64,000 nt of DNA from a virus (Duplodnaviria > Caudoviricetes): the IMG/VR virus record IMGVR_UViG_3300005458_000015, positions 1-64,000 of that record; one strand, 5' to 3'. Positions 57,508 through 63,517 of this stretch are shown in pieces (position 1 is the stretch's first letter; the number at the start of each line of letters is the position of its first letter). A model generated the notes under the pieces. The model had not been told where the DNA came from. It ran no database searches and worked only from the letters and a program-made list of their open reading frames with translations. Both the position numbers and the translations under genes were made by a program.

Positions 57508-59022
57508 TTGCCAGCAGCATCGCAGGACTACGACCGCAAGGCCAAGGCAGAGCAGGTATCGGAGAAGCGCCTACTGGAGACCTTGGCCGAACTCGGCGGC
57601 AAGCGGGTTGCCGACGATGACATCGTGTTCGAGGGCACCAGAATCGTCCTACCGGCGACGATGACCCCTCGCTCCGCGATCAAGTTCCTGACTCAGCACA
57701 TCGAGCAGGAAGAGGAAGAGACGCAGTTCTCCCGCGTGATGAACTACCGTCCGTGGGACGGGGCGTGGGCGATGCAACTCGCACTGAAGAAGGTGTTCGG
57801 CACCACCGGCATCGGCAAGGCCACCTACTCCTTCTTCGGCAAGAACCCGCCGCAGTTGATCACCATCGACGTCGGCGTGGGACAGCAGGCTCAGGTGCCG
57901 TGGGGCACGATCGACTTTCCCATCCTCCAGGCCACACTCAACCTGGGCCAGAGCAACCACCCGGAGTTCGGACCACTGTTTGCCCTGACGGTGGAGTGTC
58001 CCCGTAAGTATCGGGGTCACGTCGAGGGTCTGTTCAAGGCCATCGAGCATGAGTTGCGAGAGCACTCGATCTACCGAGGCAAGGCGTTCAACGGTGCCAC
58101 CATGCCTCAGTTCATCGACCCGTACTCGGTGGACCGCAAGAAGGTGGTCTACAAGGACGACGTGGAGCGTCAGTTGGACGCCAACGTCTGGGGTGTCCTC
58201 CGGCACTCTGACGCCCAGCGGGCAGCAGGACTCCCGCTGAAGCGTGCTGTGCTGCTCTCCGGCCCATACGGCACCGGCAAGAGCCTGGCAGCAGCCCTCA
58301 CCGGTCAGGTGGCGGTGGAGAACGGCTGGACTTTCGTGCAGTGCCGCCCAGGCAAGGACGACCTGGGCCAGGTCATGCAGACGGCACTGCTCTACCAGCC
58401 CGCTGTGGTGTTCTACGAGGACGTGGACACCATCGCCCAGGGAGGCGACCCGGACAAGGTCAGCCAACTGCTGGACATGTTCGACGGCATCACCGCCAAG
58501 GGCACCGAGTTGATCGTCGTGATGACGACCAACCACGCTGAGTTGATCCACAAGGGCATGGTCCGGCCAGGTCGGCTGGACGCGGTCATCCAGATCGATG
58601 CTCTCGACCACCAGGGCGTGGAGAACCTGATCAAAGCCACGGTCCCGACCAACCTGTTGGGCACGGACCTCGACTACGACCTGATCGGGAAGTCCATGGA
58701 GGGCTTCCTCCCCGCCTTCATCAAGGAGGCCATCGACCGTGCGGTGCGCTACAACATCGCCCGGACTCATGGCACACCGGAGTTGCTCACCACGGACGAC
58801 TTCGTGGACGCGGCTCTGGGTCTTCGCCCGCAGTTGGACCTGATGAACGGTGCCACCGAGGGCAAGACGCCGGACACGCTGACCCAGGCCATGACCCGAG
58901 TGGTCACCGACACCACCACCCAGGCGGTGCAGGGCATGGTGCTCACCGACGCCAGCAAGCGTCCGCAACTGTGGCCGGTGTCGCAGGAGGACGTTCCGGG
59001 TTCCAAAATCGCCAAGAAGTAA
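57508..59022 (+). CDS. AAA+ ATPase (classic clade, single module)
   Basis: Walker A GPYGTGKS, Walker B VVFYEDVD, SRH 'TTNH...VRPGRLD'. Confidence 0.92.
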   Translation: MPAASQDYDRKAKAEQVSEKRLLETLAELGGKRVADDDIVFEGTRIVLPATMTPRSAIKFLTQHIEQEEEETQFSRVMNYRPWDGAWAMQLALKKVFGTTGIGKATYSFFGKNPPQLITIDVGVGQQAQVPWGTIDFPILQATLNLGQSNHPEFGPLFALTVECPRKYRGHVEGLFKAIEHELREHSIYRGKAFNGATMPQFIDPYSVDRKKVVYKDDVERQLDANVWGVLRHSDAQRAAGLPLKRAVLLSGPYGTGKSLAAALTGQVAVENGWTFVQCRPGKDDLGQVMQTALLYQPAVVFYEDVDTIAQGGDPDKVSQLLDMFDGITAKGTELIVVMTTNHAELIHKGMVRPGRLDAVIQIDALDHQGVENLIKATVPTNLLGTDLDYDLIGKSMEGFLPAFIKEAIDRAVRYNIARTHGTPELLTTDDFVDAALGLRPQLDLMNGATEGKTPDTLTQAMTRVVTDTTTQAVQGMVLTDASKRPQLWPVSQEDVPGSKIAKK

Positions 59023-59713: not shown

Positions 59714-60334
59714 ATGACAGAAGGCAACAAGAGCGCGAGGGAACTCCTGGAGGAGTCCCTCAGCATCATCACCCACCCCATCCTGGAACTCGAAAACGGT
59801 GACATCGTCACCGGATGGACCGGGTGGGACGAGTTCAAGGACCTATACCACTACAAGAACAGGGTCAAGATCCTTGACCCCACCTTGGTCAAGGTCACGG
59901 AGAACAAGGTCACGAACAATGCGGTGTGCGCGATCGGTGCCATCGCTCTGGCCAACCTTGCCCAGAACTTGAACGTGGACAGGGACTCATACCGGGGTTG
60001 GGGTACCCAGATGACACTCAACGTCCAGGTGGCAATCGCCACCGTAGCGCTGGCCCAGGTCATCTACAGACGAAAGAACCTCCCCCTGGACTATCTCGAT
60101 ACACAGTGGCCACACCTGGCCAACCGCGCCGAAGTAATGGGGCTCTGGCATGTTCCTCTCAAGACTCTCATCGACGCCGCCGAAACACAACCGGATCTCG
60201 TTCGGCAGTTGGCTCAAATGACTGTCAACGTCGTTACCGGTTGGAACGACAATGACTATCGCACCTGGCCCGAGGTTGCTGAGGTCTTCACCGACGCGAT
60301 CAAGGACCTCATCAAGGCAGAGGAGGAAGTGTGA
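59714..60334 (+). CDS. hypothetical protein (DUF6197-like)
   Basis: 'CAIGAI' and 'WND...RT..EV..VF..AI' motifs. Confidence 0.6.
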   Translation: MTEGNKSARELLEESLSIITHPILELENGDIVTGWTGWDEFKDLYHYKNRVKILDPTLVKVTENKVTNNAVCAIGAIALANLAQNLNVDRDSYRGWGTQMTLNVQVAIATVALAQVIYRRKNLPLDYLDTQWPHLANRAEVMGLWHVPLKTLIDAAETQPDLVRQLAQMTVNVVTGWNDNDYRTWPEVAEVFTDAIKDLIKAEEEV

Positions 60335-61074: not shown

Positions 61075-61311
61075 GTGACGACTGTCGTAACTCTTTCCAA
61101 TGCATCGCAGACAATAAGGAGGCACGAAACCGTGAGCGGGAGCGTCAAGCATCCGCGAAAGAACAAGCCCACGTTCCAGCGCTACTGGAATGAGGACCAC
61201 CTGCTAGAGAACCGCACCAAGCGCATCATGAAGAACGATGCCAAGAACGCAGGCAAGTTGTGTGCGGAGTGGAAGAAGCGGTACGAAGTTCTGAAGAAGA
61301 GGAAGGCATGA
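61075..61311 (+). CDS. small basic protein
   Basis: ORF track; ATGA-coupled downstream; start uncertain. Confidence 0.45.
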   Translation: MTTVVTLSNASQTIRRHETVSGSVKHPRKNKPTFQRYWNEDHLLENRTKRIMKNDAKNAGKLCAEWKKRYEVLKKRKA

Positions 61312-61517
61312 GCACCAAATGGACTCATGCCATCTGCAATGACTGCTGGGATGCACGTAACCCCAACGGTCGTACTCCTCACCGGCTCAAAGACCCAGAG
61401 CCGGAATACTGCTGCTTCTGCAACGAACCAACCATCAGCGGCATCTACGTTCGTAGCGACCCGGAGAAGACACCCTGCAAAGGGCAGGGTGGACGTCTAC
61501 ACGAGGAGGATGGGTGA
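61308..61517 (+). CDS. Cys/His Zn-finger protein A
   Basis: HAICNDCW...CCFCNEPT.SG...CKGQG..H. Confidence 0.7.
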   Translation: MSTKWTHAICNDCWDARNPNGRTPHRLKDPEPEYCCFCNEPTISGIYVRSDPEKTPCKGQGGRLHEEDG

Positions 61518-61792
61518 ACGCCCATCTGATGTGCGACAGGGATTGGCATCGACTTCCTGATCCGAAACCAATCCCTGTCGCAGTAACCTTCGAGCCGGTA
61601 ACTGAGGCTCAACCCTGTTGTTGGTGTGGCGAGCCAACACAGTCAGGAGTTTTCTTCGCCAACCATGAACCAGAAGTCCTTGCCTGCAAGGGGCAAGGCG
61701 AGATCCACCAGGAGGAACAGAGTGACAGCGACACTGCCGGAGACACCAGCCAAGGAGTCGTGGGGGACAGCGGAGAAGGCGGTCCTGCCTGA
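61514..61792 (+). CDS. Cys/His Zn-finger protein B (tandem paralog of A)
   Basis: HLMCDRDW...CCWCGEPT.SG...CKGQG..H. Confidence 0.65.
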   Translation: MNAHLMCDRDWHRLPDPKPIPVAVTFEPVTEAQPCCWCGEPTQSGVFFANHEPEVLACKGQGEIHQEEQSDSDTAGDTSQGVVGDSGEGGPA

Positions 61793-62021
61793 GGGCCAGT
61801 CCTGCCTGTTTGCCCTAGACGGCTCCGGGGACTCCCGCTTCATGTGGAGCAAGGACAACCCGGACGAGATCGACGCTGCGAAGAAGACCTTCAAGCGGCT
61901 CAAGGACAAGGGCTACGACGCCTTCAAGGTCAAGGCCGATGGCGGCAAGGGCGAGAAGATCAGCGACTTCGACCCCACCGCCGAGAAGATCATCATGGCC
62001 CCGCGTCTGGTCGGTGGCTGA
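61722..62021 (+). CDS. putative ubiquitin-like (beta-grasp) protein with C-terminal diglycine
   Basis: RBS AGGAGG + GTG; inferred beta-beta-alpha-beta-beta-beta pattern ending APRLVGG-stop. Confidence 0.6.
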   Translation: MTATLPETPAKESWGTAEKAVLPEGQSCLFALDGSGDSRFMWSKDNPDEIDAAKKTFKRLKDKGYDAFKVKADGGKGEKISDFDPTAEKIIMAPRLVGG

Positions 62022-62220
62022 CCAAGCACCTTGCCCCGTATGTGGTTTAGGGGGCGGCTTCCACAACTCCGACACTCACTCCTTCGGGATAGAACGAGCG
62101 AAAGAGTTGTGGGGGTCGCCCCTGCGACCAGACATCGAGCGCAAGGACTACACGCCTTATGCGTTCAGGGCTGGTGACAACGAGTACGTCATCATCTGGA
62201 AGAAAGATGGTGGTCGATGA
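62014..62220 (+). CDS. small protein with CPVC...H motif
   Basis: GTG overlapping the Ubl stop; 68 aa. Confidence 0.55.
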   Translation: MADQAPCPVCGLGGGFHNSDTHSFGIERAKELWGSPLRPDIERKDYTPYAFRAGDNEYVIIWKKDGGR

Positions 62221-63329
62221 ACTGTCCAGGGGCGGGTCAACCGCCAAGAAGTCTCTACAAGGCCATCAGCCATTACCGGCTGCGTAATAATCGGCCACAC
62301 TTCTCGACAGGGTGGGGTGAATGCTCTCACTGCCGTGGTGCCTACACAGTCCGACCTCTCAAGACGGGTGCAGCGGCTGTCTGGCGACACAAGCCGATCA
62401 GCGAGTGCACGGAGAAGGAACAGAAACTGAACCTTCGCCGCAAGGAACGCTGGCTGATCTACTACAACATGAACCACATATCTGGTCTACCAACCGGGGT
62501 TTTTGGTGGGCAGGTTGGCACCTACTTCAACGTAGTAGAAACCCCTGGAGTCCGAACAACGGCGACACTCACGAGGGAGACCTATTGGCACCCCAACCAG
62601 CAGGTTTTCCGAGTGGAGTTGGGCTCCAACACCCAGAACACCTCAGGTCAATGGGTGTTCCAGGTGAACGACCAGATCTACGTCAACAACACGAACAGGA
62701 TGACCATGGCAGTTGACTATGCATCCTGGAACGCTTGGAACCAGACCGTCACGGTCAGCAACTACGCCCGCATCGAAGGGTGTAACACCTGGACACAGTG
62801 GGTCCAGCCCTACCAGGGAGTGTTGCAGGGCAACTCCGTTGTTGCCGTGAACGCCTTTGGTGCTGCGGGAGTCAGACCACCTGCTTACACCCGTCCGATC
62901 GAAGACCCTGCTGTCAGGGCAGAGCGGGAGCGTCAGCAGGCCGAGGCACTATTCCAGCGGGTCCAGGCCGAAAACGTGGCAAGGGCAGAGGCGCAGAAGA
63001 CAGCGCACGAGACGCTGTTGTCGCTGCTCACGCCCGAACAGCGGGAGGAGTACCAGGTCCGCAAGCACTTCCATGTCCGAGGTTCCAAGGGGACGCTCTA
63101 TCGCATCCTGCACGGCTCCTCGGGCAACGTCCGTCAGGTTCTCTCCGAAGCGGACGAAGGCAGAGGGCTTCACGCCTACTGTGCCCATCCCGCAATGCGG
63201 GTGGCAGCAGATGCAGAAGCAGGGGTTGTTGGTGGCACCTTGCCCCATGAGGACGCCATGATCGCCCAGATGCTGCATTTGATGATGGACGAGGATGCCT
63301 TCCTCGCAGTGGCCAACCGACACTGGTGA
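62217..63329 (+). CDS. Ubl-associated Cys-domain protein (N-terminal Zn finger, WxxW region, C-terminal YCAHP domain)
   Basis: 'CPGAGQP...GECSHC...RH' N-terminus; C-terminus 'LLSLLTPEQREEY...FHVRGS.G..YRI...YCAHP...LPHEDAMIAQML.L..DEDAFL.VAN'. Confidence 0.65.
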   Translation: MNCPGAGQPPRSLYKAISHYRLRNNRPHFSTGWGECSHCRGAYTVRPLKTGAAAVWRHKPISECTEKEQKLNLRRKERWLIYYNMNHISGLPTGVFGGQVGTYFNVVETPGVRTTATLTRETYWHPNQQVFRVELGSNTQNTSGQWVFQVNDQIYVNNTNRMTMAVDYASWNAWNQTVTVSNYARIEGCNTWTQWVQPYQGVLQGNSVVAVNAFGAAGVRPPAYTRPIEDPAVRAERERQQAEALFQRVQAENVARAEAQKTAHETLLSLLTPEQREEYQVRKHFHVRGSKGTLYRILHGSSGNVRQVLSEADEGRGLHAYCAHPAMRVAADAEAGVVGGTLPHEDAMIAQMLHLMMDEDAFLAVANRHW

Positions 63330-63517
63330 GAAGAGTTCAGAAGGTGTTGCTGTGGTTCGGCACCATCTTCCTGACGCTGGGAGTTGCTGTTCTCATCAGC
63401 GGTATCTTTTTGGGTTTTGACCCTTCGTTACCTGCCGTCACCATGATCGCTCAGGGCTGGCCAGTAATCATGATCTTCAGAGACCGTAGGAAGGAGTGGA
63501 AACGGACAAACCGATAG
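63326..63517 (+). CDS. 2-TM membrane protein
   Basis: Hydrophobic segments; basic tail. Confidence 0.65.
   Translation: MRRVQKVLLWFGTIFLTLGVAVLISGIFLGFDPSLPAVTMIAQGWPVIMIFRDRRKEWKRTNR

Follow-up and report, generated by a model that had tools for sequence, protein, structure and literature searches.

A two-gene unit of phages and Chloroflexota that pairs a Gly-Gly-ended protein of predicted beta-grasp fold with a cysteine-domain partner

Does a tailed phage carry a ubiquitin-type modifier of its own? The question is raised by IMG/VR virus record IMGVR_UViG_3300005458_000015, which is 82,162 bases long with a completeness estimate of 81 %, and of which bases 1–64000, the whole stretch analysed, are here called the window. 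Within a plus-strand block of small genes the window encodes a 99-residue ubiquitin-like protein (Ubl) with a free C-terminal Gly-Gly (61722..62021), a 68-residue protein with a CPVC motif (62014..62220) and a 370-residue protein, hereafter the partner (62217..63329). The initial annotation of this DNA, made from the letters and a list of open reading frames (ORFs), had proposed that these three coupled genes and two paralogous Cys/His fingers encoded upstream constitute a minimal Ubl-ligation system in which Cys322 of the 370-residue protein is the acceptor, and the features that it described are all present in the sequence. The comparisons reported here show that the Ubl gene and the cysteine domain of the partner are a real, widespread and unnamed two-gene unit.

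Viral relatives of the locus were collected with a degenerate DNA pattern for the Ubl tail, which picked out 102 IMG/VR stretches; a hidden Markov model of the family confirmed 100 loci, 92 of them unique. A profile of partner residues 255–370 matched the directly downstream, same-strand ORF at almost all viral loci, and a wider profile found the partner at 82 of the 92, the remaining ten extending downstream for about 1 kb at most. Wherever a viral locus reaches far enough, as 82 do, the partner thus follows the Ubl gene immediately, which bears out the linkage of the two families that had been predicted. When the neighbours within 4 kb were clustered by BLAST, only two conserved families were recovered, one being the Ubl and the other the partner, present at 83 of 92 loci at a median distance of +2 nt. 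The other large clusters, at 41 and 28 loci, consist of antisense-strand ORFs that overlap the Ubl gene, and no other real neighbouring gene is common to more than seven of the 92 viral loci. None of Pfam, NCBIfam, PHROGs and PADLOC describes the pair, and a phage Ubl of this type did not turn up in the literature searches.

The extent of the unit is smaller than the locus suggests. The CPVC gene starts at a GTG at 62014 within GGTGGCTGA, an 8 nt overlap with the Ubl gene, and the partner gene starts at an ATG at 62217 in an ATGA overlap with the CPVC gene. None of the fingers, the CPVC gene and a small membrane protein gene beyond the partner finds a homologue among the roughly 150 other loci with the pair, and the fingers and the CPVC protein, which had been put forward as possible adaptors, are therefore rejected as parts of the system. 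The CPVC protein gives only a sub-threshold Zn-ribbon match in Pfam. Outside this phage, the first 230 residues of the partner were found only at locus L004, its nearest relative, whose partner ORF begins before the Ubl gene has ended, with no gene between the two. Since the CPVC protein has no homologue at any other locus, and since L004 lacks an intervening gene, the 68-residue gene is to be read as a lineage-specific insertion in this phage, and the unit as the Ubl together with a C-terminal stretch of ~115 residues in the partner. The naming of the 370-residue protein as partner therefore stands for its C-terminal part, the rest lying outside the conserved unit.

The Ubl ORF begins with a GTG at 61722, 5 nt after a Shine-Dalgarno-like AGGAGGA on the plus strand (61710..61716, read from the sequence), and its close homologues agree with this start. 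The protein has a variable N-terminus of about 25 residues and a core at about residues 26–99 that ends in ...KIIMAPRLVGG, followed by a TGA at 62019-62021; the VGG end is present in 18 of 18 close homologues. Among 1.84 billion cluster representatives searched by profile, 1926 matched the family at E<=1e-3 and 607 at E<=1e-10. Among the best 150 of the 1926 the profile match reaches the last residue in nearly all, and 137 end in Gly-Gly, nine in Gly-Gly plus 1–5 further residues, three in xG and one is a tandem form; these figures come from the profile search only, as the degenerate DNA pattern used to collect loci presupposes Gly-Gly. Extensions of up to ~140 residues occur at the N-terminus and none at the C-terminus, and the usual tail reads hydrophobic, x, P, [PQAR], [MLVI], [VAQR], G, G.

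An AlphaFold model of the Ubl (predicted local distance difference test score, pLDDT, 68) has strands at residues 26–33 and 36–43, a helix at 47–63, and further strands at 65–70, 78–80 and 89–94, an order of strands and helix that had been guessed correctly from the letters. Its top Foldseek matches are Smt3/SUMO, FAT10, ubiquitin and RA domains (best E 6.6e-3, prob 0.94-0.97), and the Foldseek and VIA matches taken together comprise SUMO, ubiquitin, RA, PB1 and MoaD. With pLDDT and scores both middling, we assign the predicted beta-grasp fold with moderate confidence. PDB sequence searches with the Ubl and partner profiles returned no match, and scans of 123 Ubl members, of 73 partner domains and of the cellular members against Pfam, PHROGs, NCBIfam and PADLOC gave nothing above noise.

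Some departures from the common form were seen among the relatives. Certain proteins contain two tandem Ubl domains and certain loci two Ubl genes (P0043 and P0052; L097, L168, L059 and L054), one second copy having the end ...RIHAG. Virus Rctr197k (KX853510, L002; 4800-5228, 5246-6052, 7234-7971) encodes a distant Ubl relative ending in ...STIPG rather than Gly-Gly, then two partner-like proteins, with a clustered regularly interspaced short palindromic repeat (CRISPR) array 1.2 kb upstream.

The conserved C-terminal domain of the partner (residues 250–370; 62964..63329, plus strand) follows the lineage-specific N-terminal ~230 residues and a charged helical linker; a search with the partner recovered 16 homologues. 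Its sole cysteine is Cys322 in the motif YCAHP (codon 63180..63182), which is present in all of 73 partner domains and in 121 of 123 unique viral and cellular domains, the other two being gaps, so the invariance expected of this residue across homologues holds. Asp346, at the start of the first C-terminal helix (LPxxD; codon 63252..63254), is likewise kept in 73 of 73 domains, and among the 123 is Asp in 117, Glu in two and a gap in four. Other well-conserved positions, out of the same 123, are P343 (114), A366 (113), E359 (111), N367 (110) and Y295 (109). Position 324 is His in 65 domains, Gln in 29 and other residues in the rest, and because no histidine of the domain is invariant, a Cys-His(-Asp) peptidase is an unlikely reading.

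A model of the domain built from the 73 sequences (pLDDT 95.9) shows two N-terminal helices, a four-stranded meander of which Cys322 is the last residue of strand 4, a loop of ~20 residues and two C-terminal helices. Foldseek found no match to it in the PDB at E<1. In an exhaustive VIA search the top matches were the GCN2 RWD domain, VPS37A and the UEV domains of BRISC, Vps23 and Tsg101, together with FANCL and many ubiquitin-conjugating enzymes (E2s). As the RWD/UEV/E2 superfold accounts for more than half of the top 50 matches, we call the domain UBC/RWD-like, an assignment that is probable but not proven and that is compatible with the E2-like role suggested for it. No fusion of the domain to a known one was seen in a search for longer forms, which is weak evidence, and the ESM Atlas gave unnamed clusters only. 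In BFVD there were just the two homologues from Rctr197k, together with a weak match to A0A2L0UZL2 of Agrobacterium phage Atu_ph07, a cultured jumbo phage (E 0.37, prob 0.69, template modelling score 0.57), which, if real, would offer a tractable phage model.

The N-terminal regions of the partners vary with their source. Viral partners have a median of 106 residues there, with 26.5 % Thr, Ser and Asn and a WxxW motif in 46 of 77; the cellular ones have a median of 40 residues and 13.6 % Thr, Ser and Asn, with WxxW in two of 32. The Trp/Thr/Asn-rich stretch of the partner described here (62709..62816, plus strand), with its WxxW motifs SWNAWN and TWTQW, represents, in this phage, the N-terminal region rich in Thr, Ser, Asn and Trp that typifies the viral partners.

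The unit is very common (~1,900 clusters at 50 % identity) and is found mainly in phages, with uncultured carriers that number in the thousands. It is not confined to them, being part of the chromosome in many Chloroflexota and of a plasmid in a rhizobium. A similar tail pattern applied to one genome per GTDB species gave 58 stretches, 56 of them true members, mostly from Chloroflexota (Ktedonobacterales, Thermogemmatispora, Thermosporothrix, Dictyobacter), with further members in Bathyarchaeia, Alphaproteobacteria, Planctomycetota and one metagenome-assembled genome (MAG) of Mycobacterium. The partner, here short and mostly 133–156 residues long, lies directly downstream at 39 of the 56 loci; the other 17 cellular members have no adjacent partner. 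A profile search found the Ubl family in 55 of 301 sampled Chloroflexota genomes (54 of 300 without one unpublished genome), often in two copies, and in Thermogemmatispora the pair stands among housekeeping genes (DegV, FakA, DUF3090 and a dehydrogenase). By tblastn the Ubl family was found in only two phage records, Rctr197k and LR756511, both from uncultured sources or an enrichment culture, and in one plasmid. The conjugative plasmid of the cultured Bradyrhizobium sp. 195 has the pair (WP_247973535.1 and WP_346732911.1), both genes being annotated in RefSeq as hypothetical proteins. The pair is directly testable in its cultured carriers, which are this strain and Thermogemmatispora carboxidivorans PM5, T. 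tikiterensis T81 and T. aurantia A1-2; at the locus fetched from Thermosporothrix hazakensis ATCC BAA-1881 there is a partner-less copy only.

Any conjugation by the pair would need an activating enzyme (E1). None had been seen in the window, and ThiF (PF00899) was not found in the whole 82,162-base record, whose last 18 kb contains ten plus-strand ORFs with no E1, E2 or JAB among them. Because the phage record holds no E1, one would have to be supplied by the host. This situation is the usual one in the family: ThiF was found in four of 51 carrier phage records, and in the 27 records that are >=90 % complete it is present in two and absent in 25. Five cellular carriers have three or four ThiF genes each, none of them linked to the pair.

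The tail of the Ubl indicates what kind of E1 this might be. The canonical ThiS/MoaD proteins of carrier genomes share the end pattern of the family (DELVFIPPMGGG and DEVSIIPAVAGG, against EKIIMAPRLVGG here), and the carriers and modifiers of PF02597 (MoaD/ThiS, Urm1, the archaeal SAMPs and Thermus TtuB) are, like the Ubl, small beta-grasp proteins with the tail acidic-I/V-x-hydrophobic-hydrophobic-P-x-x-x-G-G-end. When the Ubl family was compared with canonical ThiS/MoaD by hhalign, only the last 13 residues aligned, in register, at a probability of 19 %. The PF02597 model gave no match at E<=5 in the 123 Ubl members, nor at E<=1 in the cellular members; in five carrier genomes it found other loci only, and the profile of the new family misses the canonical loci. 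On its sequence features the family looks like a diverged MoaD-like clade, and therefore activation by a host MoeB-type E1 is plausible and a sulfur-carrier role is left in play. MoeB-type E1s activate MoaD, Urm1, SAMP and TtuB, and these proteins can also be conjugated to other proteins. MoaD/ThiS-type carriers resemble the Ubl family too in that their E1 is encoded elsewhere and shared; to our knowledge most of them and of their modifier relatives have no dedicated E2 or ligase (E3). The pair differs from them in having a Cys domain of predicted UBC/RWD-like fold, which no sulfur carrier is known to have.

The best explanation for these properties, which we hold tentatively and at somewhat short of even confidence, is a minimal module of Ubl and E2-like protein that depends on a host E1. 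The reactive part would be the free Gly-Gly end of the MoaD-like beta-grasp protein. A MoeB/ThiF-type E1 of the host would activate its carboxylate, the phage having no E1 of its own, and the activated Ubl would then pass to Cys322 of the partner, where it would form a thioester or, if it arrived as a thiocarboxylate, an acyl-disulfide. From there it would be transferred to a lysine, on a target or on the partner, and in phages the choice of target would fall to the variable N-terminal part of the partner, rich in Thr, Ser, Asn and Trp. A bolder form of this proposal, possible and rather doubtful, holds that the pair is a self-contained, minimal form of ubiquitin-type tagging, intermediate between MoaD-type carriers and E2-dependent ubiquitination, by which phages tag host or virion proteins through a hijacked host MoeB/ThiF, with targets set by the Trp/Thr-rich N-terminal region.

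Several points weigh against a tagging module. The UQ_con and Prok-E2 models of Pfam do not match any of the 73 partner domains even at E<=5. The HPN motif of canonical E2s is absent, and the cysteine precedes the HP instead of following it; the partner motif, C-x-[HQ]-P, has no Asn, has His in only 65 of 123 domains and differs from the canonical HPN...C. In Atg3 the catalytic cysteine adjoins an HP motif, so that a cysteine beside HP is not without precedent. The covalent intermediate is itself hypothetical. A way round the missing E1 might have been sought in E2-CBASS (bioRxiv 10.1101/2022.05.25.493364, PMC12948482), which resembles the pair in having a lone E2-like protein without an adjacent E1. 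The E2 of that system reportedly obtains its thioester by processing the C-terminus of cGAS, the cleavage of a C-terminal peptide supplying the energy. Because most Ubl members already end exactly at Gly-Gly this E1-free route cannot apply here, and the pair differs further from E2-CBASS in that no CD-NTase or effector is linked to it.

The genomic company of the partner-less members weighs in the same direction. In a Bathyarchaeia MAG (L130 3197-3981) such a member lies 78 nt downstream of the sole MoaE detected in the genome, and an aldehyde:ferredoxin oxidoreductase (AOR) adjoins one at two other Bathyarchaeia loci and in a Desulfobacteraceae MAG (L120, L157 and L151). In a Dehalococcoidia MAG (L123) the adjoining gene encodes a molybdenum hydroxylase. 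Members with MoaE or AOR as neighbours suggest a part in the transfer of sulfur more than one in tagging.

Two serious rivals to tagging have accordingly to be considered, either of them unlikely on present evidence. In one the pair is a sulfur carrier with its acceptor: a host MoeB and a sulfurtransferase would convert the Gly-Gly end into a thiocarboxylate, and the cysteine of the partner would serve as a persulfide relay or sulfur acceptor for a thio-modified cofactor, tRNA or DNA base. The initial annotation had set a sulfur-carrier role aside, and this was premature, given the tail shared with MoaD/ThiS, the MoaE, AOR and molybdenum hydroxylase neighbours of the family members just described, and a gene order and coupling similar to those of moaD-moaE. 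Such a role is nevertheless hard to reconcile with a partner whose fold matches neither MoaE, TtuA nor rhodanese, with the failure of the canonical ThiS model to detect the Ubl family, and with the genomic setting of the pair itself, as no sulfur-metabolism gene, and neither MoaE, ThiF/MoeB nor a thiamine or pterin gene, is linked to it in the window, in phages or in Chloroflexota. The other rival, which we consider about as improbable, is a non-covalent complex in which the partner is a non-catalytic UEV/RWD-like or MoaE-like grip for the Gly-Gly tail, the cysteine is structural or redox-sensing, and the pair acts as a scaffold or regulator. RWD and UEV domains, the non-catalytic UBC-like folds, are among the closest known systems to the partner and its best fold matches, there is no HPN motif, and the pair has no linked gene for an E1, an E3 or a deubiquitinase. 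These domains, however, have no conserved cysteine to compare with the near-universal Cys322, and a strict free Gly-Gly end is typical of termini that are activated.

We think it decidedly improbable that the pair is a counter-defence decoy that occupies or traps host E1/E2 enzymes, whether those of immune systems based on Ubls (Bil, Bub, CBASS Cap2) or those of MoeB-dependent pathways. Host defence systems do use Ubl conjugation (PMC10557695, PMC10097602), and the pair occurs in very diverse phages within blocks of small genes of unknown function; yet 18 % of the sampled Chloroflexota have it on the chromosome amid housekeeping genes, neither the 301 Chloroflexota genomes nor the controls yielded Prok-E2_B, and nothing links the pair to Bil, Bub or CBASS defences. 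Least probable by a wide measure is an addiction or toxin-antitoxin-like cassette, whose two small genes, coupled in translation, would move between phages, plasmids and chromosomes. The absence of fixed neighbours, the presence of up to four copies per genome and the location on a conjugative plasmid would all suit such a cassette, but the first protein has no DNA-binding fold, no toxin or antitoxin model in PADLOC, Pfam or NCBIfam matches either protein, and the invariant free Gly-Gly would be left unexplained.

The module that we favour, a Ubl and an E2-like partner with a host E1, can be set against the bacterial systems already described. The Bil (BilABCD), Bub and CBASS type II Cap2/Cap3 operons encode their own E1 and usually a JAB peptidase (PMC10557695, PMC11601596, PMC10097602). 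They resemble the pair in combining a Ubl or a Ubl-like C-terminal Gly with an E2-type cysteine protein, and BubCD, Cap2 and CdnG-E2 chains are among the structure matches of the partner. The pair differs in having no conserved neighbour and in the lack of ThiF from most carrier genomes (the JAB family was not searched for as such), and the partner differs from the E2s of these operons in showing no sequence similarity to the Prok-E2 or UQ_con models. Bacterial Ubl conjugation has so far been a matter of operons with their own E1, mostly on the side of defence, whereas the pair lacks any E1. If the pair does tag proteins, phages would own a ubiquitin-type modifier, and the combination of a MoaD-like tail with an E2-like partner would bear on the origin of E2-dependent ubiquitination from sulfur carriers.

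There are some hints of expression. The stretch occurs in rhizosphere metagenomes, and contigs 100 % identical to it are present in three rhizosphere metatranscriptome libraries, one contig of 901 bases spanning both fingers and the Ubl gene. The genes of the Ubl locus may thus be transcribed, a hint only, as RNA libraries can hold DNA. The RNA contigs of two runs stop at 62027-62037, 6–16 nt past the Ubl stop codon, at a site that a DNA run crosses, which hints weakly that the Ubl message is more abundant than that of the partner. A terminator after the Ubl gene was considered and rejected, since no terminator-like site was seen at 62027-62037 and the local fold is no better than that of shuffled sequences.

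The surroundings of the pair are those of a tailed soil phage: the minus strand of the window has PHROGs for a DnaB-type helicase and a DNA polymerase, and for the portal, the large terminase and head morphogenesis. The two Cys/His finger ORFs upstream on the plus strand (69 residues, 61308..61517; 92 residues, 61514..61792) are true paralogues (BLASTP E=8e-11). The second has a low-complexity tail (61722-61792), absent from its paralogue, that runs 71 nt into the Ubl gene; this may be a genuine overlap, or translation may not extend through the tail. The small membrane protein downstream of the partner gene is encoded at 63326-63517. From the fingers through to the membrane protein no gene rises above noise in Pfam or PHROGs scans, the fingers, Ubl, CPVC protein and partner have no significant NCBIfam match, and the Ubl, CPVC protein and partner have none in PADLOC; megablast of a 6.5 kb segment found nothing among the phages of GenBank. 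An AAA+ ATPase of 504 residues lies 2.7 kb upstream (57508-59022, plus strand; phrog_10440, E 4e-86; weak PADLOC matches to IetA and TRIP13), but it is near the Ubl/partner pair in only four loci and is probably unrelated. Farther along the same plus-strand block are sub-threshold matches to a vWA domain and a calcineurin-like phosphoesterase (L003 5927-6586 and 2951-3544; record 69927-70586 and 66951-67544). Matches to DUF6197 and Phage_VG64 (Mycobacterium phage VG64, E 2e-51) fall at 59714-60334 of the window and at L003 3810-4196 (record 67810-68196), and these, together with a G+C content of 53–60 %, may point to an actinobacterial host.

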